A DNA stretch of 64,000 bases from Clostridium sp. CAG:524 (GTDB lineage Bacteria > Bacillota_I > Bacilli_A > RF39 > UBA660). The position numbers were made by a program, and so were the translations under genes. Positions 6,164-55,988 of the stretch are shown piece after piece. The number at the start of each line of letters is the position of its first letter. The first letter of the stretch is position 1. The DNA is taken from contig FR880111.1 of NCBI GenBank assembly GCA_000434555.1, positions 2,161-66,160 of the forward strand. Direction: 5' to 3'. The notes under the pieces were generated by a model, which worked only from the letters and a program-made list of their open reading frames with translations, made no database searches and was not told the origin of the DNA.

Positions 6164-6183
6164 AAGAATAGAGGTGAAGAGAA

Positions 6184-7764: not shown

Positions 7765-7779
7765 TAAGAAAGGATTTGT

Positions 7780-8892: not shown

Positions 8893-8896
8893 TAAG

Positions 8897-10054: not shown

Positions 10055-10064
10055 GAGGTGTATT

Positions 10065-11114: not shown

Positions 11115-11122
11115 GGTAGCAT

Positions 11123-11698: not shown

Positions 11699-11714
11699 TT
11701 TAGAAAGGATTCAT

Positions 11715-12260: not shown

Positions 12261-12267
12261 CATATAC

Positions 12268-26090: not shown

Positions 26091-28349
26091 ATGAATAAGA
26101 TAATAAATGGTAGTAATAAATATTTATTAATAATTGAAATGCTAGTAGTAATTAGCATTGTTTTAAGTATAACATATTCTAATTATTTTGTAGAATCAAG
26201 TAATCATAGAGCAGCTGAAATGTATATAGGAAGTCTTAAGTATTCTATGAAGATAGATTCTAATGAAACAAATACTTTATCACTAAAACCTGGTGTTACT
26301 GTTATTGATGTTGATGTAAACAATTTAAATCCTGTTGATACTTATTATAAATTACTTTATTTAAATAATTCTAATTTAGAAATAAAATATTTTAGTGAAA
26401 CAAAAGATACTGATGAAGTTAAAACAAGTTATAAAAGTCCTAATGATAGTGTTACAAGTAGTAATACTAATAATTTAAAATTATTTATTAGAAATAATAG
26501 TGATACTAATCAAGATGTTAGCTTTTCATTAAAAGGTGGTTATATAAATAATACACTTAGTGATATAAGCGTACCTAGTGGTTATAGTGAAATAACTATT
26601 GATAATAGTAGTAATAATACATATTTTTGTAAGACTAGTGATACCCTTACACAAGGACTTGAGTATGTTAATGGGCAATATACTTATGGTTATATGAAAG
26701 AAGGACACAATTCTTCATCTGGTCTTGCTTGGAGTAATATTTCAAATGATGGATGGGGCGTACAACTAACTGATAAAGCAAGTACAGACGCTATAACTAG
26801 TAAAATATGCTCATATATAAATAATAAACCATTAGTATCGGCTGCTGGTACATTTAATAAAAGTAAAGCAACAATATTGAATTTAGATGGCTTAAATACA
26901 AGTAATATAATAAATATGAATGGGATGTTTAGTAATACTCAGATAACAACATTAGATGTAAGCAAATTTAATACAAGTAATGTAAAAGATATGGGTTGGA
27001 TGTTTTCTGGTAGTCAAGCAACAGCATTAGATTTAAGTAATTTTAATACTAGTAATGTAACAAATATGGAAGGAATGTTTAATAAAAGTGAAGCAACAGC
27101 ATTAGATTTAAGTAATTTTAATACTAGTAATGTAACAAATATGCGTTGGATGTTTTCTAACAGTCAAGCAACAACATTAGATTTAAGTAATTTTAATACT
27201 AGCAATGTAACAAATATGGAAGAAATGTTTTATAAAAGTCAAGCAACAACATTAGATGTAAGCAGTTTTAATACAAGTAATGTAACTAACATGAAGTATA
27301 TGTTTGGTAATATTCCAGCAATAACGATAGATGTAAGCAAATTTAATACAAGCAAAGTAACTAATATGTATGCCATGTTTTATAGAAGCCAAATAACAAC
27401 ATTAGATTTAAGTAGTTTTGATACAAGTAATGTAACTGATATGAGTTTTATGTTTAATAACTCTATCAAATTGAAAACTATATATGCTAGCAACAAATTT
27501 AAAACTGATTTAGTTACATCAAGTAGTAATATGTTTTATAATTCTACTTTATTAGTTGGAGGTTCAGGCACAACTTATAATTCAAGTTATGTTGATAAAA
27601 CATATGCTAGAATAGATGGAGGAACAAGTAGGCCTGGGTATTTTACTGACATTGCTAACAAGCCTTCTACTTTTGGAACTGATGATTGGGCAACAATAGT
27701 TAACTCAGTAAAAGCAGGTAATACTAATCATTATAAAGTAGGTGATACTAAGATAGTAAATTTAGGAACATATGGTACTCATACAATACGTGTATCAAAT
27801 ACTACAACACCAAGTGAATGTTCAAATACAAATTTTTCACAAAGTGCATGTGGATTTGTACTTGAGTTTGAAGATATAATTACAACGCATGTGATTAATA
27901 CAACAAGTTCAAATAAAAATGGCTGGCCTGCAAGCAGTATGAGAACATTTGTAAATAATGATATATATAATGCATTACCAGCTGATTTAAGAAATGGAAT
28001 AATAAATACAACAACAATATCTAGTCATGGAAGTAGTGATTCAGCTAACTTTTTATCTACTGATAAACTATATTTACTTGCTACAGCTGAATTATATGAA
28101 AATGGTGAAGACATTGACACAGCTAAAAATTTGACTAGGCAACTTGACTATTATAAATCAATTGGTGTTACTATAAATAGTTATTCTGGAGCAATAAAAA
28201 AAAGTGGAACTACCGCAACGGACTGGTGGTTACGTTCATTTTATAAAACAAATAATCAACATGTATATAGCGTACTAAGAACAGGAAGAGTTGCTCACAG
28301 CATGGCTAGTTTATCAATAGGCGTTTCACCTGCATTTAGAATAGACTAA
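26091..28349 (+). CDS. DUF285/BspA-family repeat surface protein with pilin-like hydrophobic N-terminus and C-terminal WWLRS-motif domain
   Basis: The N-terminus NGSNKYLLIIEMLVVISIVLSI resembles a type IV pilin methylation motif (..LIEMLVVI..). Eight 25-aa repeats of the form LDLSNFNTSNVTNMxxMFxxSxAT are present. The C-terminal domain contains TATDWWLRSFY. Confidence 0.75.
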   Translation: MNKIINGSNKYLLIIEMLVVISIVLSITYSNYFVESSNHRAAEMYIGSLKYSMKIDSNETNTLSLKPGVTVIDVDVNNLNPVDTYYKLLYLNNSNLEIKYFSETKDTDEVKTSYKSPNDSVTSSNTNNLKLFIRNNSDTNQDVSFSLKGGYINNTLSDISVPSGYSEITIDNSSNNTYFCKTSDTLTQGLEYVNGQYTYGYMKEGHNSSSGLAWSNISNDGWGVQLTDKASTDAITSKICSYINNKPLVSAAGTFNKSKATILNLDGLNTSNIINMNGMFSNTQITTLDVSKFNTSNVKDMGWMFSGSQATALDLSNFNTSNVTNMEGMFNKSEATALDLSNFNTSNVTNMRWMFSNSQATTLDLSNFNTSNVTNMEEMFYKSQATTLDVSSFNTSNVTNMKYMFGNIPAITIDVSKFNTSKVTNMYAMFYRSQITTLDLSSFDTSNVTDMSFMFNNSIKLKTIYASNKFKTDLVTSSSNMFYNSTLLVGGSGTTYNSSYVDKTYARIDGGTSRPGYFTDIANKPSTFGTDDWATIVNSVKAGNTNHYKVGDTKIVNLGTYGTHTIRVSNTTTPSECSNTNFSQSACGFVLEFEDIITTHVINTTSSNKNGWPASSMRTFVNNDIYNALPADLRNGIINTTTISSHGSSDSANFLSTDKLYLLATAELYENGEDIDTAKNLTRQLDYYKSIGVTINSYSGAIKKSGTTATDWWLRSFYKTNNQHVYSVLRTGRVAHSMASLSIGVSPAFRID
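26868..27467 (+). repeat. Eight in-frame tandem 75-nt (25-aa) DUF285 repeats; central copies nearly identical at DNA level
   Basis: The unit gcaacagcattagatttaagtaattttaatactagtaatgtaacaaatatg recurs with very few changes at about 27020, 27095 and 27170. The outer copies are more diverged. Confidence 0.8.
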
Positions 28350-29914: not shown

Positions 29915-29956
29915 TAATATTGTGTTAAAATTATATTAATGATAAGGAGAAGAAAA

Positions 29957-30472
29957 ATGAAAAAAAGTGATAAAAAAGTAACTGGTCGTAACTATTTTAT
30001 AGTTATAGTTGTATCTATACTTATAATGGTAGTTGTGTTATATGCTAGAACATTTTATTTAAATTATAAAAATAATAAAGTAAATATAAGTATATTTGAT
30101 GATCAAAAAATTAATCAAATTAATAGTGATGACTTTGATTATGCATTAAGTGAAACTAGTAGTGAAATGATATTATATGTAAGTTACACAGGATCAAGTG
30201 AAATAAGAAATATAGAAGATAGATTATATAAAGAAATAGAAAAGAAAAATCTTACTGATAAAATAATTTATTGGAATGTAACTAATAGTAAAAATAGTGA
30301 ATATATAAACACTTTAAGAAAAAGATTTCCTGAAATAAAAGATCAAATTAATACAGCACCATTATTTATATATATTAAAGATGGAAAAGGCGTTGAAGCC
30401 ATGAGCAGTGAACTAAAAAAAGTTGACTATAAAGTATTTAATAAATTGGTGAGTAAGTACAATATTGAATAG
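29957..30472 (+). CDS. Membrane-anchored hypothetical protein (thioredoxin-fold-like size, no CxxC)
   Basis: Start chosen at ATG 29957, 6 nt after AAGGAGA. The track start 29939 lacks an RBS. TM is YFIVIVVSILIMVVVLYA. I recognise no catalytic motif. Confidence 0.5.
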   Translation: MKKSDKKVTGRNYFIVIVVSILIMVVVLYARTFYLNYKNNKVNISIFDDQKINQINSDDFDYALSETSSEMILYVSYTGSSEIRNIEDRLYKEIEKKNLTDKIIYWNVTNSKNSEYINTLRKRFPEIKDQINTAPLFIYIKDGKGVEAMSSELKKVDYKVFNKLVSKYNIE

Positions 30473-30492
30473 AAGCTTTTAGCTTCTTTTTT
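30472..30492 (+). terminator. Rho-independent terminator
   Basis: The sequence is gaagct-ttt-agcttc followed by tttttt. Confidence 0.55.
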
Positions 30493-30652: not shown

Positions 30653-32260
30653 ATGAAAGAGTATTTAATTATTTCTATAAAAGATAATGTTCTTACATAT
30701 GATTATAGAAATATTGATGAATCATTAAATAAATATATTAATAAGAATGAGTTTATTAATAATACTCTATATTTTTCTATGAAATATTATAGTAATAATT
30801 ATGAAAAAGTTATTGATTTAATAAAAAGAAACTATAGTGGAATTGACACTATGAATGTAAGACACCTAGTAACATTTAAATATGTTGTTATTATGATGAT
30901 AAGACTTAAAATGTCTTATTTAAAATTAGATATACCATCTACTATAAGTTTATCTGATTATGAATTATTTTTAACAGTTAATACATTAAAACAAATAGAT
31001 TGTTATTTTATGCCAATATTTATTAAAGAAAAATTTAATAATAAAAATGTAGTAGTTAATCTATATAATCATAATAAAATAAGTGATAGATTTATGATAT
31101 CACAAGATTCACTTGACTATGAAACTTTATATTATAGAAAGACACTTGAAATAAAAGAAGAATATCCAGGTATTTTAGATGATATAAAAGAATTCCTAAG
31201 AATAAATTATAATTTAAAATCTATACATATATATGTATTCTCTAAAGATTTAATAAATAATATAATTAATCTTGTTAAAAATGATGAATCAAGAAATATA
31301 ATAGTATTCTTACATCAAGGAAAAGATAAAGGTAATTTTATTGTTAATAACTTTGCTTGGTTAAAAGAATTAAATAAAAAATGTAAAAAAGATTATACAT
31401 GTGAATTTAGAATATTATATTCTAATGATTTTATACGTAATAATTTATTTAAGCAACTTACATTTAATAATTTAAAACTTATGTCTATAATGGCAGTATA
31501 TGTAAGTGTAGTATGTTTACTTATATTTAAATCATATGAATACATAGAAAAGATGGCTATTGATGAAGTAAATCAAGAAATAATAAATAGTTCATTTGCA
31601 CTACCTAATAATGATTCAAAAGAAGAACTTACTAATGGTGGAGTAGAACTTGATCAAAAATTAAATGATAAACAAGTAAAAGATAAATATTCATTTGATA
31701 AAGTATTTCCTAAACTTAAAAAAATCAATAAAGAAACAGTAGGTTATTTAGTAGTAAATGGTACCAATATAAATTATCCTTTAGTACAACATAGTGATAA
31801 TAGTTATTACTTAAAAAGAGATTTCTATAAGAAAAAAACTAGTATGGGATGGATATATTTAGATTATAGAAATGATATAGAAAATCTTAATGATAATAGT
31901 ATTATATATGGACATAGTATGTTAAATGGTACAATGTTTGGTACATTATATAGAGTCATAAATAGTAGTTTTAGAAAAAATAATGAAAACATGATTATAT
32001 CATTAGATACACCAACTAAATCATATAAATTCAAAATATTCTCAGCATATAGAGTAGATTATACTACTGACTACTTAGTTAATAACTTTAATAGTAAAGA
32101 AGAATTTGATTCTTTTGTTAAATTAATAAAAGGAAGAAGTTCATTTAAAGCAAAAGATAAAGTAGAATATGGAGATAAAATACTTACACTATCAACTTGT
32201 GCTGGTGGCGGTAATAGAAGAATGGTAGTACATGCAGTACTTATAAAGGATGGTGAATAA
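30653..32260 (+). CDS. Class B sortase domain fused to a ~290-aa N-terminal cytoplasmic domain of unknown function
   Basis: TM is LMSIMAVYVSVVCLLIF at about residue 285. SrtB-type blocks are VGYLVVNGTNINYPLVQHSDNSYYL, catalytic His IIYGHSM, catalytic Cys LTLSTC, and Arg in GGGNRRMVVHAV. Confidence 0.8.
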   Translation: MKEYLIISIKDNVLTYDYRNIDESLNKYINKNEFINNTLYFSMKYYSNNYEKVIDLIKRNYSGIDTMNVRHLVTFKYVVIMMIRLKMSYLKLDIPSTISLSDYELFLTVNTLKQIDCYFMPIFIKEKFNNKNVVVNLYNHNKISDRFMISQDSLDYETLYYRKTLEIKEEYPGILDDIKEFLRINYNLKSIHIYVFSKDLINNIINLVKNDESRNIIVFLHQGKDKGNFIVNNFAWLKELNKKCKKDYTCEFRILYSNDFIRNNLFKQLTFNNLKLMSIMAVYVSVVCLLIFKSYEYIEKMAIDEVNQEIINSSFALPNNDSKEELTNGGVELDQKLNDKQVKDKYSFDKVFPKLKKINKETVGYLVVNGTNINYPLVQHSDNSYYLKRDFYKKKTSMGWIYLDYRNDIENLNDNSIIYGHSMLNGTMFGTLYRVINSSFRKNNENMIISLDTPTKSYKFKIFSAYRVDYTTDYLVNNFNSKEEFDSFVKLIKGRSSFKAKDKVEYGDKILTLSTCAGGGNRRMVVHAVLIKDGE

Positions 32261-32916
32261 TGAAAAAGAAAATATTTGTAATACTTATTAGTATATTTGT
32301 AATGATTAGCTCAGTAAATGCAACATGTGATGATAATGAAAGAAATAGACTTAAAAGTTTATCAAAAGATATAACTTACGAAACTTCTTACAGCATAAGT
32401 ACTAAAACATTTACAATTAAATTTTATAACGTATTTCCAGGATTAATAATAGGAATTAATGATGGTACAATTAAAGGTGGAGATAATAATGACAGTTATA
32501 GTGTTACAATTGATAATATTAAAGAAGGTGAACATTTAACAGCCGACATATACGATAGTATAGGTTGTAATGAAAAATTAAATACATTATTTATAACATT
32601 ACCATATTACAATAATTTTTATGGAACACAAAAATGTGAAAAATATGTTGGAAAGCTAACACAATGTACATATAAGTTTCTATCATACGAATTAACAGAA
32701 GATATATTAGACGGAGCAATAAAATCAATAGATACAGAAATTAAACCTGTTATCCCTGAACCTGTCGTAAAAAAAACATTTTTTGAAAAAGCATATGAAA
32801 CAGTAAAAACATTTCTTACTGACTGGGGAATTAACATTGGCTTATTCTTATTCTTTGGAATAGTTACAGCAGTAATAGGAGAAAAAATATATAGAAAGAT
32901 AAAACATGGTATATAA
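32260..32916 (+). CDS. Secreted/C-terminally anchored Cys-containing protein, paralog 1
   Basis: TAATG overlap with the sortase gene. Sec signal is IFVILISIFVMISSVNA followed by TCDD. The C-terminus is FFEKAYETVKTFLTDWG, then TM INIGLFLFFGIVTAVIG, then the basic tail KIYRKIKHGI. Confidence 0.6.
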   Translation: MKKKIFVILISIFVMISSVNATCDDNERNRLKSLSKDITYETSYSISTKTFTIKFYNVFPGLIIGINDGTIKGGDNNDSYSVTIDNIKEGEHLTADIYDSIGCNEKLNTLFITLPYYNNFYGTQKCEKYVGKLTQCTYKFLSYELTEDILDGAIKSIDTEIKPVIPEPVVKKTFFEKAYETVKTFLTDWGINIGLFLFFGIVTAVIGEKIYRKIKHGI

Positions 32917-32942
32917 AAATTATCATGTTTTTAAATATTTTA

Positions 32943-32971
32943 ATGACATTTTAATGCAGTTATGTTATAAT
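32943..32971 (+). promoter_or_regulatory. Internal sigma-A promoter (-35 ATGACA, 17 nt spacer, TGn-extended -10 TGTTATAAT)
   Basis: ATGACA at 32943-32948 and TATAAT at 32966-32971, preceded by TGT. The RBS GTAGGTGA follows. Confidence 0.55.
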
Positions 32972-32996
32972 TTTTCTAGAATAAAGTAGGTGAAAT

Positions 32997-33686
32997 ATGA
33001 GAAAGGTTAATTTAATTTTATTTAGTATTTTATGCTTATTTATTTTTACTTTTAAAGTAGATGCAGTATGTAATGATAAGGCGTTAAATGAATGGGCTAC
33101 AAATGCTACAATTGAATATATGGAGGATGTTGATATAAGAGATCCAGAAGATAATCTTATACATAGTAAGGAATACTTGTATCTATTATTTATTTCTACT
33201 CAAAATGAAAAAGGAAAAATAATGGTAAAAGATTCAGAAGATGAAAATGAATATGAAATAAAATATGATGATGAAATATTTTATGGATATGTAGTAGGTT
33301 CATATTTGCATATGAATGAAAAAACATATACATTTACATTATATGGGGCAGAGAACTCTGCATGTCCTAATGAAAAGCTTAGAACGATAGAATATAAAGT
33401 ACCTGCATATAATGTATATTCAAGATCAAAATATTGTTTAGAAAATCCAACAGAAGATATTTGTAAAACTAATAGTAATGAAATGAAAGATGTAAGTGAC
33501 AAAGAATTTATTGAGATTATTAATAAAAAAGAAGAAGAACAAAAAATTGCTAAAATGAACTTTTTTGAAAAAGCATTATATTATTTAAAGAAAAATTGGT
33601 ACTTTATAGTAATACCTATAGTATTAGTTTCTGCTTTCTATGCGATTAGAATTTATATATTAAAGAAGAAGGTGGATGAAGAATGA
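32997..33686 (+). CDS. Secreted/C-terminally anchored Cys-containing protein, paralog 2
   Basis: Signal is LILFSILCLFIFTFKVDA followed by VCND. It shares the YN.Y....C and FFEKA + TM + basic tail layout with the 32260 product. An ATGA overlap links it to the next gene. Confidence 0.6.
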   Translation: MRKVNLILFSILCLFIFTFKVDAVCNDKALNEWATNATIEYMEDVDIRDPEDNLIHSKEYLYLLFISTQNEKGKIMVKDSEDENEYEIKYDDEIFYGYVVGSYLHMNEKTYTFTLYGAENSACPNEKLRTIEYKVPAYNVYSRSKYCLENPTEDICKTNSNEMKDVSDKEFIEIINKKEEEQKIAKMNFFEKALYYLKKNWYFIVIPIVLVSAFYAIRIYILKKKVDEE

Positions 33687-36600
33687 AAATAAAAAATAGT
33701 AAATATTATAAATTTTTAGTATTACTTTTATTTAGTTTTTCAAGCATTATGTATATTAAAGGTGATGGTGGAGGAAGCATTACTATCACTGGTTCAGGAA
33801 AAAAATTTACGGATATAAGTTTTTGTGGTAATACAGTTATAAAGAGTGATGCTAAAACCAAAACAGTTACAGGTCAAGGAAAAGATAAAGGTACAGCAAT
33901 GGCAAATGCTATTAAAGCTAGAAAAAGTGCTATTAACTCCTTACCAAGTGGCTCAACAGTAATAGATAGTTCATCAGCTGTTACATGTCATGTGTCTCCT
34001 ATTTCTAATGGCGGAAATAAAGGTGGAAGTGGAAATGGTAGCAGCATAGGCGGCGGTATTATTATGGAAGATATGAATTATATAGAAGATGACATATATA
34101 CAGTTGAAAAAATGTCATCGAATTCATGTATGAGATGCTGTTCAGGAAAAAATTGTAGTTATAAATGGGGAAATCCAAATAAATATAGAACTTGTCAAAG
34201 ACAATCAGGAGTTGCTAATGAAGCAAGTTGTAGAGCAAAAAATAATAAGACTACTAAAAAACCTGGAGCAACAGTACCAGCTAATGGATGCTATTGCTGT
34301 GGTGCTTCCTCACAGGGATGTAAATATGTATGGAAGAAAAAAGGTGACCCAATAGGAGGCTGTGCAGCACAATCTAAAACATATGCTGAATGTACTGGAC
34401 AAAATGTAGCAATAAAAGGATACGTTTGTAAAGCAAGTTATACATATACTCCAGCCGGAAAAGTTAATAATGGAAGAGCTCAATTACCAACATATAAATA
34501 TGATGCGACAGACCCAAATTTTGCTAATATAAGTGAAGATGCTTATTGCTTACAAAAAGGTCGTCCAGGACCAGATAGTTCATCATGGTCATATACAGCA
34601 CTTGATAATTTTGATATTTCATCTTGTAAGACTAGTGGAGATAATTATCAATGTGGTCTAGCTGAAATAATGTGCCAAACAATGGATATAAGTGTAGATG
34701 AAAATGGAAAGTTTACTGTAAAAAACAACGGAAAATATTCATATTCAACAGTATCAACTGCGCTTAGAACATGGGTAGCTTATGATAACTCATCAATACA
34801 TGATGGAGGAGGAGTAAATACAGGCGGTTCTGGTGATGATGGATTTGATTATTATTCAAACACAGATGTATACTCAAATAGTGCTAATTATTTTTTAAAT
34901 AAAGGCGGAGAAGTTAAAAAATGTGGTAATTCATGTCCAGAAGGTTCTGAAAACTATGGAGTATTATGTTATGGCGATACAAATGAACAAAAAAATATAC
35001 AAGGTGTAGTTGACTTATTACAAAATACAAGGAGTGGAACATCTTGTTTAGATAAACTTAATAAAACATTAAATGGAAATAGCGGTGAAGACGGAAACGA
35101 TGCAACTGAAGGTGAATTAAGTTATGGAAAGCCAGGCATCGATATTGATTTAGATAAAAATTCGCAAACTGCAAATGTAAAAGTAACATTTAGTAAGATG
35201 AAAGTTGGTACAACAATAATATCAGAAAGTACAACTAACGTAGAAGTACCTGTTAAGTATTGTACTGAAGGTAGCTCAGGATGTACTGTTATTATTGAAG
35301 CATTTGACGCTAAAGGAAATAAAATAGCTGACGGCCAAATGGGAAAATGTGCAAAAAATTATTGTGAAGTTAAATACAAATATAAACAAATGTGCGAAGA
35401 AAAAACTCAAACAGCACAAGATAATTATATTACAGCTAAAGTAACTGTTTATACAACAAGTGGAGCAAAGGGAGATAATAAAGCAGGAGCTTTAATAAAA
35501 AATTACGCTAAAGCAAGCGGAGAAGTTTCTCAACAATTTGTATCATTTGATGTAAAAGGCGTACAAGATTTATTAAATGGAAATCCTAGCAGTGGTGGAA
35601 GTACAGGTGGAACTGAAACAACTACTGAACTTTCAAAAGGACCTGTTTATACTGCTAAGAAGTCAATCGTATGTCCATGCGATAACAAAAAAAGGTGTGA
35701 TGATTTTAAAGTTGTAAATACACTACCAAGTAAATGTACTGATTATGATAATTTTAATCAAGGACTTTATGATACATATGATGAAGGTAAACTAGAAGAA
35801 CCTTACATGAACTGTATCATGAATGCATGTAATGTTAGCCAACGTAATCAATATGATTTTAGTAAAGAATATGGAGTTGACGTTGGAATTTGTAGAATAT
35901 TCTGTCGTGAAGAAGTAGAATTTTATTTGGCAAATAAAACTAGAGTTTATGCAGGAATGCAATTTAAATATAAAATTGATGAAGTTCCAGGAGTTGCTAA
36001 GAAGAGAAAATTAACAAATGGTAACTCGCTAACATCAATGGTACTTCAAAAGAGACAATGTGCTTCTGAAATATATTATGATCATAGAAATCCATGGTAT
36101 AATTATTCAACTAAAGATTCAAAATATGATAGTTATATTAAGGCAGGATATGATACATGGCAAAAAATGTATGGTAAGGCTGTAAAAGATATGGTTGATG
36201 CATGGAGTAGTTGGAAAGCATATGAAACATTGCATAAAAAAGAAGGATGGGGAACATGCAATCCATATTTAGATCATGCACCTGATGTTAATTGTTATAG
36301 TAGTGGTAGTGGATGTCCAAGTTCATGTCCTGTATCACAAACATTACCAGGATTTGACTATGTATATTTATGGCCTCCTAAAGGTTCAACAGTAAATAAC
36401 ACCAAATCTGATACTGGAAATCCAGGATATAGTTATAATAATAAGAGTGAAGACACTAATAATAAAGTAACATTTAATGTAAATAATCGAAATAACAGGC
36501 CTAGCGACCAAGATGGAAAATATAATCAAAGCAATGGTTCAACATCAAATGTGTGTGGCTCATATACATGTACTGATTCCAAAGGTAAAAAGGATACATG

Positions 36601-38083
36601 CTATAAATATAGTTGTACAGCAGGAGCAGCATCAGGATGTAAGAAAGGTGAACCAGGAAAAGATAAATGTAAAGTTAAAAATCAAGAGGCAGCATTATGG
36701 AGCGCATTTAAAGCAGCTGTTAATAATATTACGCAGTTAGTATATGAATTAGAAAACTGTAACTTATATAAAACTGAAGATTTAAAATTATATTATGATA
36801 GTGCAAGTTATGTAGATTTTAGCGGATATACTCCTCATAGACCAAAGTATCAAGGTACTTATACATCAGCAATTGATGGAGGTACAACAAAAGATTATAT
36901 TCTTAAACTTGCTAACTGTAAGAGCGAAAAAGGATGTATATCTTTAGACCTTGAATATGCAGATAAAAAATATGGTGCTGAAACAACATTTGGTAAAGAA
37001 GTAGAAATTGTAGCGCAAGATAAAAATATAAAAGAACAAGATTTAACACAAGACGCATGGTGCATTAATAGTAACGCTGGTGAAAAGAAAACTGGTAACT
37101 CATATAATGCAAGTTGTTATCCAGGACCTGGCAATACGGATGTTGATTTAACAGGAAAAAATGTAAAAGGAGAACATGATTTAGTATCTTGCAAAGGATA
37201 TGATACTAACGCACAATGTAAAGTAAATCAAGTTACAGGTGAAAAAATTGAACTTCCAATCAATGACTTTGCAATATTCACAGTAGTAAGTGAAGCTGAT
37301 TTCTGGCAACCTAAGAGATATTCAACAGAAGTTTATACAGGTAATGTATTTGAAAGCGGTTCATCATACGGAGCTTCAACAACAAGCTTACCACCATATG
37401 TTTTCCCAGTAAGCATGGATAAAGAAAGCGGTGGTAAAACAGGAGCATATGATGTAAAACATAAATATAGTTACGTTGGTTCTGCTTTAAGTAAAGCACA
37501 ATTATTAAATGAAAACTATTATGAATTTACTTGTCAATATGAAGTATACAATATTACTAACTTATATGATTGTAAGGTTGGTACTGATGCAAATAAAAAT
37601 GCTGACTTAGAAACATGTAATAATAAGTGTTATGAAATAAAAGATGGAGTACCAATCATTCGTGATTGTGCAAGTTGGAATAATAGAACTAATGATTCTA
37701 AAGGATATGGATTTGTTTATAGAAATGTTGAGCTAAGTAAATTATTCCCAGCGCCAAGAAAAGTTGGAAATAACTGGTATACTCACGATAGTGAACGAAA
37801 AGCCATAGAGGCAACAGCAAGTGATATGTATACAGACAGTGAAAAATATTTAGAATATAGTTTCATATTAAACAGTGATTCTATCAAGAAACTTAGAAAA
37901 TATAACAAAGATAGAAATGGCGCCGGAGGTTACATTGACAATACTCTTAGGGGATGTACTATAACTGATGGATTCTATAATTGTTCAAGTTCATTCTTAG
38001 ACTTAATTAGAGATGATTCAAATAGTTTTGGAATAAAAGTTAATAAATCTGATGGAATATCAAGATATAGACAAGGATATTAA
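33683..38083 (+). CDS. Giant (1466 aa) Cys-rich secreted protein of unknown function
   Basis: Signal peptide is YKFLVLLLFSFSSIMYI. Dozens of Cys are present (not counted). A duplicated motif appears as CMRCCSGKNCSYKWGNPNKY and CYCCGASSQGCKYVWKKKGDP. There is no C-terminal TM or sorting signal. Confidence 0.7.
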   Translation: MKIKNSKYYKFLVLLLFSFSSIMYIKGDGGGSITITGSGKKFTDISFCGNTVIKSDAKTKTVTGQGKDKGTAMANAIKARKSAINSLPSGSTVIDSSSAVTCHVSPISNGGNKGGSGNGSSIGGGIIMEDMNYIEDDIYTVEKMSSNSCMRCCSGKNCSYKWGNPNKYRTCQRQSGVANEASCRAKNNKTTKKPGATVPANGCYCCGASSQGCKYVWKKKGDPIGGCAAQSKTYAECTGQNVAIKGYVCKASYTYTPAGKVNNGRAQLPTYKYDATDPNFANISEDAYCLQKGRPGPDSSSWSYTALDNFDISSCKTSGDNYQCGLAEIMCQTMDISVDENGKFTVKNNGKYSYSTVSTALRTWVAYDNSSIHDGGGVNTGGSGDDGFDYYSNTDVYSNSANYFLNKGGEVKKCGNSCPEGSENYGVLCYGDTNEQKNIQGVVDLLQNTRSGTSCLDKLNKTLNGNSGEDGNDATEGELSYGKPGIDIDLDKNSQTANVKVTFSKMKVGTTIISESTTNVEVPVKYCTEGSSGCTVIIEAFDAKGNKIADGQMGKCAKNYCEVKYKYKQMCEEKTQTAQDNYITAKVTVYTTSGAKGDNKAGALIKNYAKASGEVSQQFVSFDVKGVQDLLNGNPSSGGSTGGTETTTELSKGPVYTAKKSIVCPCDNKKRCDDFKVVNTLPSKCTDYDNFNQGLYDTYDEGKLEEPYMNCIMNACNVSQRNQYDFSKEYGVDVGICRIFCREEVEFYLANKTRVYAGMQFKYKIDEVPGVAKKRKLTNGNSLTSMVLQKRQCASEIYYDHRNPWYNYSTKDSKYDSYIKAGYDTWQKMYGKAVKDMVDAWSSWKAYETLHKKEGWGTCNPYLDHAPDVNCYSSGSGCPSSCPVSQTLPGFDYVYLWPPKGSTVNNTKSDTGNPGYSYNNKSEDTNNKVTFNVNNRNNRPSDQDGKYNQSNGSTSNVCGSYTCTDSKGKKDTCYKYSCTAGAASGCKKGEPGKDKCKVKNQEAALWSAFKAAVNNITQLVYELENCNLYKTEDLKLYYDSASYVDFSGYTPHRPKYQGTYTSAIDGGTTKDYILKLANCKSEKGCISLDLEYADKKYGAETTFGKEVEIVAQDKNIKEQDLTQDAWCINSNAGEKKTGNSYNASCYPGPGNTDVDLTGKNVKGEHDLVSCKGYDTNAQCKVNQVTGEKIELPINDFAIFTVVSEADFWQPKRYSTEVYTGNVFESGSSYGASTTSLPPYVFPVSMDKESGGKTGAYDVKHKYSYVGSALSKAQLLNENYYEFTCQYEVYNITNLYDCKVGTDANKNADLETCNNKCYEIKDGVPIIRDCASWNNRTNDSKGYGFVYRNVELSKLFPAPRKVGNNWYTHDSERKAIEATASDMYTDSEKYLEYSFILNSDSIKKLRKYNKDRNGAGGYIDNTLRGCTITDGFYNCSSSFLDLIRDDSNSFGIKVNKSDGISRYRQGY

Positions 38084-38103
38084 GAAAGGAGAGTAATGAT
38101 TAA

Positions 38104-39237
38104 ATGAAGGAATCAGTTTGGGGATATTTAATACTAGTTCTTGGAATAGTTGTAATCGTTATTCTTCTTCTAATCCAAAGAATTACAACGACAACAGAAG
38201 AAGATTTCTATTTAGGACGTGAAGTAATGGAAGCATCAATGCTTGACGCAGTAGACTATGGTACTTTTAGAACAACCGGTAAAATAGTAATGTCAAAAGA
38301 AAAGTTTGTTGAAGTATTTATACGTAGATTTGCTGAAAGTATCACAAATAATAAAGATTATCAACTAGATTTTTATGATATATATGAAGAACCACCTAAA
38401 GCAACTGTTCGTGTAAGAACAGTAAGTGGTGATACAACATTAAATTCTGATACATTTGATATTAAGCTTGATACTTATATGCATGGTATATTAGAAAGCG
38501 TTTATGGTACTGAACCTGGTACTAATAGTACTCCAACTACACCAGGTAAAGGTAGTGGAACAGCTGGAATGGGTGCACTTACTCCATATGATGAAGCAGA
38601 AGAAGAAGAAGTTGAAGAGGAAGAAGAAACAAAAGAGGCACCACCACTATCTTGCGATGTACAAACTAAAAATACAAATTATAATACTAAATTTGCTAAT
38701 GGAGCTAACTTACGTGATTATGGATGCGGTTATACATCAATATCTATGGTAGCTAGAGCATTTGGTAAAAATGTATCACCAGAACAAGTTGCTAATGATA
38801 TTTGGGATGGACCAAATCATAATTCAAGTACACTTGCTGGTCAAGATTCTGAAGTTTGTGGAAAAAATGGTGCTAGTACAAGTACTTGTGGTAGAGTTAC
38901 TACTGGTACACTAACAAATGATAAATTGCTTGGAAAATATGGATTAAGTGGCAATGTACTATTTAATCAAAATACAAGTGAAGCAGATAGAAAGAAAGCA
39001 ATAACAGATGCATTGAATCGTGGAGAAGCAATTATCCTTAGAATACCTAATCACTATATAGCAATTTCCGGTTCACCAGATAACATTCAATTATGTAATC
39101 CTTGGGATAGAGAACAAAATGGTACTTATACAGTGGACAGTCTATTTAGTAATAGTGCTATTACTAACTGGCATGGTAAATGTGGTAGTACTAATGAATG
39201 TGGTATATGGTATGGTGCTTCATATTCAACTAAATAA
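38104..39237 (+). CDS. Pseudopilin-like N-terminus fused to a C39-like (papain-fold) cysteine peptidase domain
   Basis: The N-terminus is MKESVWGYLILVLGIVVIVILLLI. The linker is acidic (EAEEEEVEEEEE). The Cys box is DYGCGYTSISMVARAFG. The His/Asp boxes are IPNHYIAISGSPDNIQLCNPWD. Confidence 0.6.
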   Translation: MKESVWGYLILVLGIVVIVILLLIQRITTTTEEDFYLGREVMEASMLDAVDYGTFRTTGKIVMSKEKFVEVFIRRFAESITNNKDYQLDFYDIYEEPPKATVRVRTVSGDTTLNSDTFDIKLDTYMHGILESVYGTEPGTNSTPTTPGKGSGTAGMGALTPYDEAEEEEVEEEEETKEAPPLSCDVQTKNTNYNTKFANGANLRDYGCGYTSISMVARAFGKNVSPEQVANDIWDGPNHNSSTLAGQDSEVCGKNGASTSTCGRVTTGTLTNDKLLGKYGLSGNVLFNQNTSEADRKKAITDALNRGEAIILRIPNHYIAISGSPDNIQLCNPWDREQNGTYTVDSLFSNSAITNWHGKCGSTNECGIWYGASYSTK

Positions 39238-39263: not shown

Positions 39264-41801
39264 TCAACGCTTTTTTCTTATGTAAATAATTGTTACTATA
39301 AACGCTAAACTAGAAATAATAAGTCCAACAATAAATCCACTTGGAACATAGTTCATTTTTATATTATGTTTACCTTTATCTAAATCTAAACATATAAATG
39401 AATCAAAACATATATCATAATTTACTTTATTATCATCAACATAGATATTCCATCCTTTATCATATGGAATAGTTAATAATAATACATTTTTATCATTATT
39501 AACATCTATATTTCCTTCTATATGATTATCTTTATTATACTTAGTTATATTAAATTCATTTTTCTTAAGTTCATTAATTGTTTCAATATAATTATCATAA
39601 TCTATTTGATACCATATTAATGAATCATATTTTATTTTAGTAGCATTTGATTTAATAACAATTTTATATTCATCATTCTTCTTAATAAATAATGGTATTT
39701 GTTTATTATATACATTCTTTATTTCTTTATTGTTAATATAAACAGTATAAGAACCATCAAAAATGTTATTATTAAACATTATTGAATCAGGATTATTTTT
39801 TTCAGTTAGTTCAATATTCGGAATAAGAAATGCATCATTACTAGCTTTACCACTAATTACCGCATAGAAATTTTTATCTGGTATAATGTATTTTTTATTA
39901 TTATCAATTTTAATATTTGCATTATATATTTTAATATTATTATCTATTTTATATGTTTTAATATCAGTATTTAACATTGAATTAATTAAATTTTCAGTAT
40001 TCTGATAAGAACTATTACTTTCTTTAAATTTCTTATTATAAATCATATATCCTAAACTTAATGCATCTTTATTTAAATACATGTAAGGATTTTCATTATA
40101 AACATTTTCATAATACATTTCATCTTTACTACCATTTATATATTTTATACCAAGTAATGATGTTAAATATGGATTATAATTATTAAATTTTACATTTGTT
40201 TCATGTTTAACACTATATCCAAATTTTCTTAAAAAATTTAATATTTTAGCATTTCTAACTGAATTAAAATGATTTATGCCATTATAATTCAATAGGGAAG
40301 GTGAATTATATACAAGTTCGAAATCTACTTCAATTCTATAAAAATTATTATCTTTATTTTCAATTTCCTTTATCTTGTTTATTGCATCTTTATATTTATT
40401 TAAATATAATTTATAGTCTTGTATTTCAGGATGAATTTGAAGTATTGTAAAAGTTAAAATTATATTAAAAGTTATTTCAGTAAAGAATAAAATTAACAAT
40501 AATGTTTTAGTTTTTTTATTCTCAATTAAGAATACATACAATATAAGTAGAAGAAAACTAAATATTAGAGAAAAAATCTTAAAGCCATTATTACAATCAA
40601 TTTTTGATATAGGGTATAATGTTAATAATATAAAAGATATTATAATAATTAAATTCTCTTTTATATTAGTTTTATAAGTAATATTAGTTATTTCCTTCAT
40701 AGCAACAGTTATTAAAAAGAAAGAAAATGTAAATATATATCTATTAGGATACCAAATAGGTCTTTGAAATAATTGCCAGGCAAAATCTAATAAATTAAAA
40801 CTTATACTAAGTAAAAAGAATAATATGAAAATTAATGTAGTAATTCTTTCTTTTTTAGATATTTTTTTATTAAAGAAATATTTTATTACTAATATTATTA
40901 CAAATAATGAAACATATATATTAACCATACCATATTCTAAATCATAATTAGATGTAGAACCTGGTAAGAATTTATAAAATATATTTAAGAAGTTCATATT
41001 AAATTTGAAATATTCTGTTTTACTAGATGCATAGAGTAATGCTTTTCCTTTTAATAGTTCACTTGCTTCAGGAATAATTATTATCATACACATAAATCCT
41101 GAAAGTAAACTTGATATAATAAAGTCTTTAATAATATTTTTATCTAATTTATAAATAACAATATTATATATAAAATATAACAATGAGAATATACATACCA
41201 TATAACCAATATAAAAATTAGATATTATTGATAATGTAAGTGATATTATATAAAGTCTATTTTTTCTTTCATAAATTAATTTATCAAGACCTAAGATTAC
41301 TATAGGAAATAAAACAACTGTATCAAAATACATGTAATTAAAGAAATAGCATACATTATAAGCCATTAACGCATAACTTATACTAAATATAATATATCTT
41401 AAATTAGATTGATTTTTAAATTTATATTTTAAGTATTTACACATTGTAAATCCAGAAAGACCAATTCTTAAAAGAATAATAAATGTATAATATTCTAATA
41501 TATTTTCACTAGTACTAAATATACAAAGTAGGTTAGTTGGATTAAACATATAATATATACTAGTCGCATAAAAATTATATCCAAGTAATCCTTTAAATGA
41601 ATAGAATAGACTTTCATTACCAAGAAGAACATTTTTATAATAACTAGTAAATCCAGCATATTGATAATACCCATCATATTTTGATAGAACTTGTCCACCA
41701 AAAGGATATATCTTACAAACTAGACAGCATATTAACATTATTAATATTGGTACTATAAAAGCTAAAATTTCAGGTAAATGTTTTTTAAAATTCTTTTTCA
41801 T
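39264..41801 (-). CDS. YfhO-like polytopic membrane protein (GT-C type glycopolymer glycosyltransferase family)
   Basis: 845 aa. More than 12 N-terminal TM helices, a large extracytoplasmic domain and a terminal TM, which is the YfhO family layout. The neighbourhood is teichoic-acid related. Confidence 0.55.
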   Translation of the reverse strand: MKKNFKKHLPEILAFIVPILIMLICCLVCKIYPFGGQVLSKYDGYYQYAGFTSYYKNVLLGNESLFYSFKGLLGYNFYATSIYYMFNPTNLLCIFSTSENILEYYTFIILLRIGLSGFTMCKYLKYKFKNQSNLRYIIFSISYALMAYNVCYFFNYMYFDTVVLFPIVILGLDKLIYERKNRLYIISLTLSIISNFYIGYMVCIFSLLYFIYNIVIYKLDKNIIKDFIISSLLSGFMCMIIIIPEASELLKGKALLYASSKTEYFKFNMNFLNIFYKFLPGSTSNYDLEYGMVNIYVSLFVIILVIKYFFNKKISKKERITTLIFILFFLLSISFNLLDFAWQLFQRPIWYPNRYIFTFSFFLITVAMKEITNITYKTNIKENLIIIISFILLTLYPISKIDCNNGFKIFSLIFSFLLLILYVFLIENKKTKTLLLILFFTEITFNIILTFTILQIHPEIQDYKLYLNKYKDAINKIKEIENKDNNFYRIEVDFELVYNSPSLLNYNGINHFNSVRNAKILNFLRKFGYSVKHETNVKFNNYNPYLTSLLGIKYINGSKDEMYYENVYNENPYMYLNKDALSLGYMIYNKKFKESNSSYQNTENLINSMLNTDIKTYKIDNNIKIYNANIKIDNNKKYIIPDKNFYAVISGKASNDAFLIPNIELTEKNNPDSIMFNNNIFDGSYTVYINNKEIKNVYNKQIPLFIKKNDEYKIVIKSNATKIKYDSLIWYQIDYDNYIETINELKKNEFNITKYNKDNHIEGNIDVNNDKNVLLLTIPYDKGWNIYVDDNKVNYDICFDSFICLDLDKGKHNIKMNYVPSGFIVGLIISSLAFIVTIIYIRKKR

Positions 41802-41926: not shown

Positions 41927-42760
41927 ATGAAGTCTATGGAGGGAAAAAGAATGGAAAATATAAAAGTTGCACTTAAAAGATTTTTAAAAAATAAAAATAC
42001 AGTTACTATTATTGCATTACTAACTTCACTTGCGATTCTATACTATGCATATAATTTAAGAATTAAGAAAGCTACTGAACCAATTAGTGTTCCATATGCA
42101 GTAAGAAGACTAGAGCCAAGAACTTTAATTGAAAATAAAGATGTTGGTATTAAACAAGTACCAGGTGGAATGGTAAATGGACGTGATGTAATTGCTAGTT
42201 CATCATTAATAGTTGGAAAATATGTATCAGAAAAAGTTGAAATACCACTTGGAAGTTTATTTTATAATGAAACAGTTGTTACTTGGGAACAACTACCATC
42301 AAGTTTATTTGAAGATATTCCTAATGATTACACAGTTATAACAATGCCAGTATCATTAGAAACTACATATGGTAATTCAATATTTACAGGTAACTATATA
42401 GATTTATATTTTGCTGGATATGACTATGATGATAAATTAATTGTAGCTAAGTTCATTGAAAGCATTAGAGTACTTGCTGTAATTGATGGACATGGAAATA
42501 ATATATTTGAAAAGAGTTCAAATGTTGAGCCTCCATCATACTTAATGTTCTCAATACCAGAGGATTTACACTTACTACTTAGAAAAGCAATATATAAAAA
42601 AGTTAATTTATTCCCAGTACCTAGAAATGCAGAATATTCTTTAAAACCAAACCCAACTAAAGTTAGTAGTACATATATTAGAAAATTAATTGAACAACAA
42701 ACTATTGATGTAAGTGAGAAAGATTTAGAATTAAATCCAATACAAGGAGGTAATCAATAA
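41927..42760 (+). CDS. CpaB/RcpC-like Flp pilus assembly protein (SAF domain), copy 1
   Basis: N-terminal TM is VTIIALLTSLAILYYAY. The SAF-like segment is RLEPRTLIENKDVGIKQVPGGMV. The probable true start is ATG 41951, 7 nt after GGAGGG. Confidence 0.6.
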   Translation: MKSMEGKRMENIKVALKRFLKNKNTVTIIALLTSLAILYYAYNLRIKKATEPISVPYAVRRLEPRTLIENKDVGIKQVPGGMVNGRDVIASSSLIVGKYVSEKVEIPLGSLFYNETVVTWEQLPSSLFEDIPNDYTVITMPVSLETTYGNSIFTGNYIDLYFAGYDYDDKLIVAKFIESIRVLAVIDGHGNNIFEKSSNVEPPSYLMFSIPEDLHLLLRKAIYKKVNLFPVPRNAEYSLKPNPTKVSSTYIRKLIEQQTIDVSEKDLELNPIQGGNQ

Positions 42761-43554
42761 TGAATGCATTAAAAAAGTTCGTAACTAATAAAACATTCGT
42801 AACAATTGCATTAGGAGCAGCTTGCTTAATCATTTTATATGTTGCATACACATATAGGGTTGGTAAAGAAATAAATAAAGTTAAAATATATGTTGCAAAA
42901 GAAAATATTCCTGCAAGAACAGAAATAACTGATAATTTAATTGAAGAAGTAGAAGTTGCATCTTCAATGTTAAGTAAAGATGTAATTCGTGATGTTAATA
43001 GTATAAAAGGAAAATATGTAAATTATAATACATATATTCCAGCTGGAAGTCCATTTTATGCATCAGCCATAATTGAATGGAAACAAATGCCTGATTCAGC
43101 TTGGTCAAGCATACCTACAGGAAATACAGTTTTCTCATTACCAGTGAATACAACTACAACATATGGTAACTCAATATTTCCAGGTGATAAAATAGATTTG
43201 TATTATGAAACTAAAGATGGTTCTGGAATGTATGTGTTTGGTAAACTAATCGAAGGAATTACAATACTTGCTGTTAAAGATGAAGATGGTGAACACATAT
43301 TTAAAAAAGGATCAAACCAAAAAAATGCTAGTGCATTAATATTTAGTGTTTCTGAAGAATATCATATTCTTTTAAGACAAGCTACATACTTAGATGGTTC
43401 TTTAGTTCCAGTACCTAGAAATAAAAATTATAATAAAAAAACTAATATAACAAGTGAGTATCTAAGACATTTAATCGAAAATAAATGTAGAATCATCAAT
43501 CCAGATGTTGTTGATACACCAGATGCTGGTGATGAAAATATAAAAGTAAAATAA
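42760..43554 (+). CDS. CpaB/RcpC-like Flp pilus assembly protein, copy 2 (paralog)
   Basis: TAATG overlap with the upstream gene. It has the same layout and shared strings with copy 1: TTYGNSIFPGDKIDLYY against TTYGNSIFTGNYIDLYF, and LVPVPRN against LFPVPRN. Confidence 0.6.
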   Translation: MNALKKFVTNKTFVTIALGAACLIILYVAYTYRVGKEINKVKIYVAKENIPARTEITDNLIEEVEVASSMLSKDVIRDVNSIKGKYVNYNTYIPAGSPFYASAIIEWKQMPDSAWSSIPTGNTVFSLPVNTTTTYGNSIFPGDKIDLYYETKDGSGMYVFGKLIEGITILAVKDEDGEHIFKKGSNQKNASALIFSVSEEYHILLRQATYLDGSLVPVPRNKNYNKKTNITSEYLRHLIENKCRIINPDVVDTPDAGDENIKVK

Positions 43555-43587: not shown

Positions 43588-44928
43588 ATGGATAATGTTG
43601 TTTTTTCACAAATAGATTTTGGATTATTTATGCCTCTTTTAGAAAATGACGATATAACAGATATTTCATATTCTAATGGTGGTAAACAATTATGGGTAAA
43701 AACATTAAGTAAAGGTGTTTATCCAGTACACATTGATGGTATAAATAATGAAGTTGTAGAGAAATTAGCATTTCAATGTTCTAACGTTATGGGTAAGACA
43801 TTTAACATGGCTCATCCACTCTTAGATGCTGAAAGTGCTGAACTTCGTCTTAACTTTGTTCATGAATCTATTGCTACTAATGGCATAGCTCTTCTAATAA
43901 GAAAAACACCAGCAATGATAAGACTTAATAAAGATAAACTTGTTAAAGAAGATTATGTATCAGTTAAATTACATGACTTCTTAATTACATGTGTTACTGG
44001 TCACTGTAACATACTTGTTAGTGGAGAAACTGGTTCAGGTAAAACTGAGTTTATCAAATATCTTGCTAGTAAAATAAAAGAAGATGAAAAAATAATAACA
44101 ATAGAAGATACATTAGAACTTCACTTAGATAAAATATATCCAGATCGTGATATTGTAGCGATGAAAACAAATAATATTGCTTCATATTCTGATGTTCTTG
44201 TTGCTTGTATGCGTCAAAACCCAAGATGGATTTTACTATCAGAGGTTCGTTCAGCAGAAGCTGTTCTTGCTGTTCGTAACTCAATTTCTTCAGGACATAA
44301 TATCTTGTCAACAATACACTCAGACAAAGCATCAAGTATTCCAATGCGTTTATATTCACTTCTTGAATCTAGTCAAGATATAAATCAATTTGTTGCATCA
44401 ATGCATAGATATATTCAGCTTGGTATACATATAAAAGGATTTTTTTCTAAAAAGTATAATAGATTTCAAAGAGAAATTACACAAGTGGTTGAATTTTACG
44501 TTGATGATGAGGATAATGAAGCTAAAGTAAATGTACTTTATTCAAGAGATTTAATGGATAATGAAGTGTATAACAACCCAACTCAGCATTTAATTGATTA
44601 TCTAGCAAGCCAAGGTGTTATGATGCCTGAAGACCCATTTATACCAAAAGGTAGTGAGCTTAAATCAAGTGAAGAAAAAACAACTAGTGAAAATACTGAA
44701 ACAACAAATACTGATTTAAATAATAAACCTGCACAAACAAATAATGTAAAAGAAACTAAAACCACTGCTACTGCTAGCAATATAGTATCTGAGGTTCCAG
44801 TTCAACCAGGAATCACTCCAGTAAACAAAACACAAGAAATTAGTAATATCAATCAAAACGTAAATCCTGTAAATACAGGTGTAAACAATGTAAATAACAA
44901 TTCCAATCTTGAAATTGTTGAGATATAG
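43588..44928 (+). CDS. CpaF/TadA-type (VirB11-like) secretion ATPase with low-complexity C-terminal tail
   Basis: Walker A is VSGETGSGKTEF and the Asp box is IITIEDTLELH. Walker B is RQNPRWILLSEVRSAEA and the His box is SSGHNILSTIHS. The last ~100 aa are Thr/Asn/Val-rich. Confidence 0.85.
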   Translation: MDNVVFSQIDFGLFMPLLENDDITDISYSNGGKQLWVKTLSKGVYPVHIDGINNEVVEKLAFQCSNVMGKTFNMAHPLLDAESAELRLNFVHESIATNGIALLIRKTPAMIRLNKDKLVKEDYVSVKLHDFLITCVTGHCNILVSGETGSGKTEFIKYLASKIKEDEKIITIEDTLELHLDKIYPDRDIVAMKTNNIASYSDVLVACMRQNPRWILLSEVRSAEAVLAVRNSISSGHNILSTIHSDKASSIPMRLYSLLESSQDINQFVASMHRYIQLGIHIKGFFSKKYNRFQREITQVVEFYVDDEDNEAKVNVLYSRDLMDNEVYNNPTQHLIDYLASQGVMMPEDPFIPKGSELKSSEEKTTSENTETTNTDLNNKPAQTNNVKETKTTATASNIVSEVPVQPGITPVNKTQEISNINQNVNPVNTGVNNVNNNSNLEIVEI

Positions 44929-52545: not shown

Positions 52546-52570
52546 TAAAAAAAAGATTCTATTGAATCTT
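52546..52570 (-). terminator. Rho-independent terminator of the minus-strand LCP operon
   Basis: On the minus strand the sequence is aagattc-aata-gaatctt followed by tttttttt. Confidence 0.6.
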
Positions 52571-55978: not shown

Positions 55979-55988
55979 TTATCTCTCC

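Follow-up and report, generated by a model that had tools for sequence, protein, structure and literature searches.

We analysed a 64-kb stretch of DNA from Clostridium sp. CAG:524 (contig FR880111.1; hereafter the window, whose own numbering is used throughout), centered on a five-gene region that starts with a gene for a sortase fused to a large N-terminal domain (gene 1) and continues with genes 2 to 5 (g2 to g5; Table 1). We propose that gene 1 encodes a working sortase that represents an undescribed sub-family within class B, the normal partner of which is a canonical protein with a C-terminal xPxTG sorting signal. In the clade of the window, the partner gene would no longer stand beside the sortase gene, through loss or relocation, and the sortase gene would have been recruited to lead a Cys-rich surface-protein operon beside a Tad-like machine, with g2 as an uncleaved membrane partner. 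We give this reading as a whole a probability of about one half. The enzyme would possess a cytoplasmic alpha/beta-repeat domain of ~270 residues, one membrane helix and a catalytic domain outside the cell.

The C-terminal part of gene 1 scored 167.9 bits against the NCBIfam model TIGR03064 (class B sortase; MEROPS C60B; cutoff 153.75) over residues 335-518, and was matched by Pfam Sortase over residues 367-530. It contains the GHSM, TLSTC and NRR motifs at positions 420, 512 and 521, in line with a first-pass annotation of this DNA that had recognised an SrtB catalytic domain by the same motifs. Comparison with the sequences of SrtB crystal structures from B. anthracis, C. difficile and S. 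aureus gave E-values of 1e-31 to 1e-37, the match to B. anthracis SrtB (2oqw) having an E-value of 2.7e-37. The predicted fold is a sortase beta-barrel with features of class B, and structural similarity search using Foldseek revealed that the top 19 matches are all SrtB structures, with target-normalised template modelling (TM) scores of 0.68-0.91. By contrast, the score against NF040525, which describes a class B sortase specific for LPKTxAVK, is 70 bits against a cutoff of 200, so that gene 1 does not belong to that sub-family. The triad of H421, C516 and R523 is invariant across 68 aligned homologues of the window's clade, and catalytic residues are lost in merely 2 of 65 distinct full-length fusions. 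These two pseudo-sortases (L023:29-1582 and L024:10001-11560; genomic loci carry labels in the style of L001) lack both the catalytic His and the catalytic Cys, which are replaced in L023 by Asn and Tyr, respectively. The catalytic domain itself is of the ordinary kind; in public annotation the protein already goes by the name of class B sortase, as in the NCBI name of one homologue cluster, "class B sortase [Bacilli bacterium]".

The N-terminal extension in front of the SrtB domain, already noted in the first-pass annotation, spans residues 1-272. The sole hydrophobic segment of gene 1 by hydropathy comprises residues 272-295, and the full-length AlphaFold2 model (predicted local distance difference test, pLDDT, 82.6) has one long helix across residues 258-311. 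Given a catalytic domain outside the cell, this single segment would leave residues 1-272 on the cytoplasmic side. The best 120 clusters listed among 364 hits cover the gene 1 protein over 100% of its length at 54-99% identity. Relatives do not conserve the methionines with which the membrane helix begins, so that there is no hidden short form of gene 1; a mis-called start near residue 280, once considered as an artefactual origin of the extension, is ruled out by the same lack of conservation together with the full-length coverage. Modelled alone by AlphaFold2 (pLDDT 90, predicted TM-score 0.81), the N-domain adopts two initial hairpins followed by ~8 strand-helix units at a spacing of ~25 residues.

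A phmmer search with the single N-domain sequence against 1.84 billion (1.84e9) representative proteins retrieved 58 N-domain relatives. Because each full-length one is a protein of 513-565 amino acids (aa) with a sortase domain, the N-domain is known solely as part of this class B sortase fusion. In Foldseek searches of PDB and BFVD, no structure came within E<=0.001 of the N-domain; the top TM-scores were 0.31 or lower, with only a faint leucine-rich-repeat-like resemblance. The N-domain family gave no Pfam match at E<=10, no PHROG match and no match of its profile among PDB sequences. Profile search and structure prediction, which had been suggested as a check on the extension, yield a confident alpha/beta-repeat model with no recognised family or fold in these libraries. 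A literature search for a sortase with a cytoplasmic domain found nothing.

The case for a canonical partner comes from the relatives of gene 1. The close set comprises 15 species-representative genomes that carry the fusion sortase gene, all of which (15/15) are uncultured gut metagenome-assembled genomes labelled Bacilli, Tenericutes, Mycoplasmatota or Clostridium sp.; one carrier gene sits on a 1.53-Mb chromosome. In addition, 55 further loci were obtained by a metagenome scan using the N-domain of one distant sub-clade as the query. Outside the window's clade, 50 loci have enough upstream sequence to be evaluated, and 42 of them encode a divergently oriented small secreted partner, a count that takes in near-duplicate loci from different metagenomes; the signals of these partners amount to 28 distinct ones. 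The partners are 175-400 aa in size and lie mostly 30-200 bp from the sortase start. At their C-termini, an xPxTG or xxxTG motif (NPQTG, NPKTG, SPKTG, NPETG, IPPTG, TPDTG, ETKTG and others) precedes a membrane helix with a basic tail. Several of these C-termini reach the cutoff of the LPXTG-anchor model TIGR01167 or approach the NPXTG-anchor model. For example, L018 and L019 (26% N-domain identity) encode a divergent 401-aa Listeria-Bacteroides-repeat protein ending in ...SPKTG, a membrane helix and KRKNKFSNI, whereas in L020 (31% N-domain identity) a head-to-head 374-aa protein ends in ...NPKTG, a membrane helix and SRKQKVQSL. Across the sortase from this partner, L020 encodes g2-like and g3-like proteins, a big Cys-rich protein, DUF5411 and CpaB-like proteins, an ATPase and membrane proteins. 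The gene order of L021 is the same, with the partner C-terminus lost at the contig end. Most of the distant members lack Tad-like genes in the surrounding 10 kb, yet possess a canonical partner, which argues that the ancestral role was ordinary sorting.

Further analysis of the partner C-termini revealed an unusually regular organization. The T/S-G position counted from the C-terminus is identical in 24 of the 28 distinct signals, with 31 residues after the Gly, and off by one in the other four. The last eight residues follow the pattern K-[NKS]-[NKT]-K-[LFMVI]-[YQF]-[KRNH]-[IV], so that a canonical partner end can be written as xPxT-G, a membrane helix and the tail K-x-x-K-hydrophobic-Y-[KR]-I-COOH ~31 residues past the TG. 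Among pairs of partners with diverged ectodomains, the mean identity is 43% in the tail, compared to 25% in the membrane helix and 27% in the ectodomain. An ordinary sorting-signal tail is a mere cluster of basic residues.

Scans of the window itself for LPXTG-, NPQTN- and SPKTG-like patterns gave nothing near the C-termini of the encoded proteins; the absence of a canonical sorting signal, previously remarked for the operon products, extends to all 64 kb. A C-terminal membrane helix with a basic tail occurs only in g2, g3 and a polytopic YfhO protein, and homologues of the canonical NPKTG/SPKTG partners are found neither in the window nor in the close loci. From this absence the first-pass annotation had deduced either a non-canonical motif or a sortase-like enzyme with other chemistry, an alternative left unsupported by the xPxTG proteins paired with distant fusion members in 42 of the 50 evaluable loci. 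At the level of the family, the loci point clearly to a dedicated small secreted protein encoded head-to-head with the sortase as the norm. The missing adjacent substrate looks mostly explained at that level, as a local loss rather than new chemistry.

We propose that the enzyme would cut its partner after the Thr and join it to the cell wall, as do other class B sortases. A cell wall is likely, because LytR-CpsA-Psr (52569-54485, minus strand), LtaS and YfhO proteins are encoded in the window, and a penicillin-binding protein with PASTA domains and an amidase in relatives. The cytoplasmic domain would dock on the conserved tail of the substrate, so that the signal would be recognised from both sides of the membrane. 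A coupling of the enzyme, through this domain, to some intracellular component is plausible, and the best candidate for the contact is the conserved C-terminal tail of the substrate rather than a signalling input, as had been suggested earlier. Direct contact between the tail and the N-domain is an attractive hypothesis because both would be cytoplasmic and the N-domain is unique to the fusion-sortase clade. In the window's clade, the head-to-head substrate gene would be gone from its usual place, and the sortase gene would now head the operon for Cys-rich surface proteins next to the Tad-like filament or secretion machine. Since the catalytic triad is invariant in the 68 clade members, a substrate probably exists elsewhere in the genome. 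The g2 protein is translationally coupled to the sortase, and most likely serves it as a membrane partner that stays uncleaved, not as a substrate, because it has no cleavage motif and is retained beside a catalytically dead sortase.

Several observations weigh against this proposal. A canonical xPxTG neighbour was found in none of the 11 evaluable close relatives within 10 kb of the sortase, nor in the window. The window's enzyme shares only 22-35% identity in the N-domain and 39-54% in the sortase domain with the members that have canonical partners, and with so low an identity its specificity could have drifted. The partner count includes the near-duplicates mentioned above. The conservation and fixed spacing of the tail could stem from common descent of the signals instead of functional constraint, and the N-domain has no recognisable binding fold in the Foldseek searches of PDB and BFVD.

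A more specific reading carries the two-sided recognition further; we hold it tentatively and consider it less likely than not. Here the outer domain takes the xPxT-G motif, the cytoplasmic repeat domain binds the C-terminal octet and the fixed 31-residue spacing serves as a ruler, whereas in the window's clade g2 acts as an uncleavable mimic of the tail, occupying the cytoplasmic domain and thereby coupling or gating the sortase to the Tad-like machine and the Cys-rich cargo. The C-terminus of g2 reads [VIT][KR]H[GK][ILF]-COOH in 97 of 98 near-full-length cluster representatives and is an almost invariant ...KHGI in the window's clade.

As previously described, g2 and g3 are paralogous Cys-containing proteins, each with a Sec signal peptide and, at the C-terminus, a membrane helix followed by a basic tail. 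They contain 4-5 Cys residues each. The pairwise similarity is weak (E 0.008), but family-to-family alignment with hhalign gave a probability of 98.8% and an E-value of 8.5e-17. The proposed shared motif "FFEKA" is kept among close relatives only and not family-wide. The g2 gene lies directly 3' of the sortase in 15 of 15 genome loci, and four Cys, K213 and H216 are invariant in its product. It is conceivable, though unlikely in our view, that g2 (perhaps also g3) is the substrate, cleaved at a non-canonical site just before the helix, e.g., near a conserved WG. No other conserved protein of the operon combines a signal peptide, C-terminal helix and basic tail, and g2 always follows the sortase; in the window's clade its WG stands at a fixed 28 residues from the C-terminus, compared to 31 for the TG of canonical partners, and its tail resembles the canonical one at positions -1 (I/V/L) and -3 (H/Y). 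However, 41 of the 98 g2-family representatives have YY, IY or NY in place of WG, none of the 98 has a TG-type motif, and to our knowledge no sortase cleaves after Trp. In L020, a g2-like protein without WG coexists with the separate NPKTG protein (L021 has the same order, with the partner end cut off), and g2 is kept beside the catalytically dead sortase of L023. Moreover, the g2 ectodomain is not homologous to those of canonical partners; descent of g2 from them by decay was ruled out, as hhalign matched the signal peptide only. The earlier suggestion of the 218-aa paralogue as a substrate is thus not borne out, and we retain the reading of g2 as an uncleaved partner.

The five open reading frames lie exactly where first described, with genes 1 and 2 joined by a TAATG overlap and genes 3 and 4 by ATGA, as reported. 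Genes 2 and 3 are separated by an 80-nt gap that contains the best promoter-like match of the region (Table 1). The site would fit the internal promoter of the first-pass annotation, but is no more than suggestive, since DNA as AT-rich as this (20-33% GC) shows no excess of promoter-like sites compared to shuffled sequence. Along the whole window the GC content is 19-33%. No tRNA genes and no Rfam families at the gathering score were found in the 64 kb, and thus no riboswitch or other RNA element of those kinds in the region upstream of the operon. The view of a self-contained five-gene operon does not hold: the genes are the 5' portion of a more extensive conserved locus, which also encodes CpaB-like proteins, a secretion ATPase and pilin-like proteins.

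Table 1. Features of the fusion-sortase operon and the adjoining Tad-like locus (window coordinates)
Feature	Position	Strand	Evidence or remark
DUF6568 protein (PF20207; PedC-like in newer Pfam), membrane-anchored, no Cys	29939-30472	+	Pfam E 4e-22
Terminator-like hairpin	30471-30487	+	separates DUF6568 gene from sortase operon; sole such site in 29800-42000
Gene 1, fusion sortase	30653-32260	+	535 aa
Gene 1 residues 1-272, predicted cytoplasmic alpha/beta-repeat domain	30653-31468	+	AlphaFold2 model; seen only in this sortase family
Gene 1 residues 274-294, single membrane helix	31472-31534	+	hydropathy
Gene 1 residues 345-535, catalytic domain	31685-32260	+	class B sortase; H421, C516, R523
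Gene 2 (g2)	32260-32916	+	218 aa; secreted 4-Cys domain, C-terminal membrane helix, conserved tail
Promoter-like site	32943-32971	+	ATGACA-17-TATAAT, upstream TG; 11/12 consensus positions; consensus match only
Gene 3 (g3)	32997-33686	+	229 aa; g2 paralogue
Gene 4 (g4)	33683-38083	+	1466 aa; secreted, Cys-rich
Gene 5 (g5)	38104-39237	+	377 aa; DUF5411 + C39-like peptidase
YfhO-family membrane protein	39264-41801	-	Pfam E 4e-157
Two CpaB/RcpC-like proteins	41927-42760 and 42760-43554	+	weak, below-threshold matches
Secretion ATPase, T2SSE / VirB11 / TadA type	43588-44928	+	Pfam T2SSE 95.7 bits, above cutoff
Two polytopic membrane proteins, TadB/TadC positions	44940-46630	+	positional label only; highly conserved, syntenic
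94-aa pilin-like protein	46705-46989	+	M[KR]E[SA]..G leader
174-aa pseudopilin-like protein	47085-47609	+	M[KR]E[SA]..G leader
314-aa cytoplasmic protein, TadZ position	47625-48569	+	syntenic; positional label only
118-aa membrane protein	48640-48996	+	syntenic; weak T4SS_pilin match only

Within this larger locus, the ATPase gave VirB11, TrbB and TadA as its best NCBIfam models, each below cutoff. The CpaB-like proteins scored 27.7 bits against Pfam RcpC (cutoff 28.8) and 50.6 against TIGR03177 (cutoff 71), and their genes are syntenic in every locus long enough to show them. The opposite-strand YfhO gene splits the window's sortase operon from the CpaB-like and ATPase genes; it is absent from this place in L003, L013 and all distant loci, where g5 or its DUF5411 part directly precedes the CpaB-like genes, and it is not part of the system. 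The leader noted in Table 1 for the two pilin-like proteins, followed by a hydrophobic stretch, is shared by g5 and invariant across loci. In L017, the homologue of the 314-aa protein directly follows the sortase. At the other end, the DUF6568 gene adjoins the fusion sortase in close and distant clades (L017, L020, L027, L030-L034, L047, L059). CxxC is absent from every DUF6568 copy, which usually has no Cys at all, and the protein would be a redox-inactive thioredoxin-like partner; a literature search on DUF6568 found nothing. A HerA/FtsK-like (DUF87) ATPase is encoded on the opposite strand between the sortase and the g2-like gene in two distant loci (L020:8036-9793 and L021:2836-4698, both minus strand) and has no homologue in the window or the close loci.

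Tad (type IVc) systems and a predicted secretion operon in which DUF5411 accompanies CpaF/PilC-like genes in gut Clostridia (Roseburia, Ruminococcus, Eubacterium; PMC9523054) have in common with the window CpaB/RcpC-like proteins, a T2SSE ATPase, two polytopic membrane proteins, pilin-like proteins and DUF5411. The latter operon, the single paper found on DUF5411, has no sortase, g2/g3 or g4 among the shared components described. Compared to Tad systems, the membrane proteins at the TadB/TadC positions have no T2SSF match, no Pfam match at E<=10 and no PDB profile match, so that their likeness lies in position and topology; the TadZ-position protein has no sequence-family support; the CpaB matches stay below threshold; the pilin-like proteins lack the Flp-type G/xxxxEY leader, with no EY motif; and no A24 prepilin peptidase was found among the scanned window open reading frames. 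The Tad label is partial, with the ATPase solid, the CpaB matches just below threshold and TadB, TadC and TadZ assigned by position alone.

This setting suggests that the fusion protein might be mainly a structural part of the Tad-like machine, its cytoplasmic domain docking on the ATPase or the TadZ-position protein and its outer domain on g2, g5 or the pilins, with transpeptidation secondary or dispensable. Synteny with the CpaB-like, ATPase and pilin-like genes persists at 31-42% N-domain identity (L017, L020, L021, L023), the TadZ-position gene comes directly after the sortase in L017, and the pseudo-sortase of L023 keeps its place, with a g2 homologue, two CpaB-like genes and the ATPase directly 3' of it. 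We consider such a role quite improbable, however, in view of the triad retained throughout the window's clade, the rarity of catalytically dead fusions (2/65) and the distant members, most of which have a canonical partner and no Tad-like genes inside 10 kb. The second pseudo-sortase, L024, likewise has no Tad-like genes inside 10 kb. In addition, the adjacency may partly reflect a shared chromosomal neighbourhood, as the Tad-like locus lies in one flanked by QueG and LtaS.

The remaining genes of the operon encode a Cys-rich protein and its apparent companions. As reported, g4 is a secreted protein of 1466 aa, with 61 Cys residues (4.2%) by our count. It varies between relatives except for a conserved C-terminal domain of ~270 aa, has no membrane anchor and gave no Pfam, NCBIfam or PDB sequence match; the g2, g3 and g4 families have no Pfam, NCBIfam or PHROG match. 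The g3 gene is always 5' of a large Cys-rich protein gene, whereas g2 occurs without any g4 partner. The g3-g4 module is duplicated in L010 and L011, and in L004 the g3-like and g4-like frames are fused in frame, twice (L004:181-4443 and L004:4513-9318), each fusion keeping the g3 membrane helix and basic loop, then the g4 signal peptide. These in-frame fusions indicate a tight functional coupling of g3 and g4 and, together with the pairing and the duplicated modules, make g3 look like a membrane tether or escort of g4. Although g4 is co-operonic, has no anchor of its own and carries in its conserved end a motif K-x-D-G-[IV]-S-x-Y, we regard it as very unlikely that the sortase anchors g4 or a pilin-like filament through such a signal in place of a C-terminal helix and tail, because sortases need a substrate held in the membrane by the sorting-signal helix, which g4 lacks, because the motif contains no T-G, and because the pairing, fusions and duplications point to g3 as the tether. 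The pilin-like N-terminus and C39-like cysteine peptidase earlier ascribed to g5 correspond to Pfam matches to DUF5411 (residues 1-132, E 3.9e-49) and Peptidase_C39_2 (residues 204-314, E 1.6e-6), and inspection of the sequence gives C208 and H317 as candidate catalytic residues. Distant loci conserve the DUF5411 part of g5 only.

The known class B sortases of S. aureus and B. anthracis recognise NPQTN and NPKTG, respectively. The enzyme of C. difficile recognises (S/P)PxTG (PMC4155245). All three share with gene 1 the catalytic-domain sequence, the predicted fold and the His-Cys-Arg triad, and like them the members of the fusion family adjoin substrates ending in NPKTG, NPQTG or SPKTG, a helix and a basic tail. 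They differ in that known SrtB enzymes have only a short N-terminal anchor, compared to the conserved ~270-residue cytoplasmic domain of the fusion family, in that the last eight residues of the fusion-family partners are conserved and almost constant in their distance from the TG, and in that the window's clade has no adjacent substrate. The class B fold is also shared with S. pyogenes Spy0129 and S. pneumoniae PI-2 SrtG1 (Foldseek matches 3psq and 4y4q), which are likewise encoded in surface-appendage loci. However, every pilin in those loci has a sorting signal, whereas the proteins of the window's locus have none, and the appendage genes of the window are of the type IV filament kind, unlike sortase-assembled pilins. 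The NF040525 sortase and the exosortase/PEP-CTERM systems similarly pair one enzyme with cognate proteins whose whole C-terminal signal is conserved; we know of no cytoplasmic domain on the sorting enzyme in either.

Elsewhere in the window, a separate cluster at 2547-19596 (plus strand) has the look of a TasA/SipW-type secreted-fibre module. It contains two SipW-like S26 signal peptidases (5499-6053 and 11715-12260), three proteins with signal peptides ending in SYAWF or AYAWM (8897-10054, 10065-11114 and 11123-11698) and, after the SipW-like peptidase, a 2442-aa protein with BspA-type leucine-rich repeats and CBM_2 (12268-19596). The N-terminus of a 752-aa DUF285 and DUF6273 protein at 26091-28349 (plus strand), KYLLIIEMLVVISIV, is similar to the N-methylation segment of type IV pilins, with an atypical Glu spacing. 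Two secreted proteins with cadherin-like, SH3_3 and dockerin type I domains are encoded at 54503-58175 (minus strand).

Judging by the literature and libraries that could be searched, three features are new: a cytoplasmic domain that is exclusive to this sortase and resembles no known structure, dedicated partners whose signal is fixed in length and ends in a conserved tail, and a coupling, specific to the window's clade, with g2 and a Tad-like locus of the DUF5411 type. Tad-like systems with DUF5411 are poorly understood in gut Firmicutes, and the locus brings to them a sortase and a set of Cys-rich surface proteins, in a host lineage of small-genome, uncultured bacteria common in gut metagenomes. 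Sortase recognition is thought to rest almost wholly on the extracellular pentapeptide, the tail being a charged stop-transfer element, and the question that emerges as the more interesting one is whether a sorting signal is recognised from the cytoplasmic side. If so, this family would offer a natural test case for the reading of a sorting signal from inside the cell, bearing on how substrates are kept separate in multi-sortase bacteria and on the engineering of orthogonal sortase tags.

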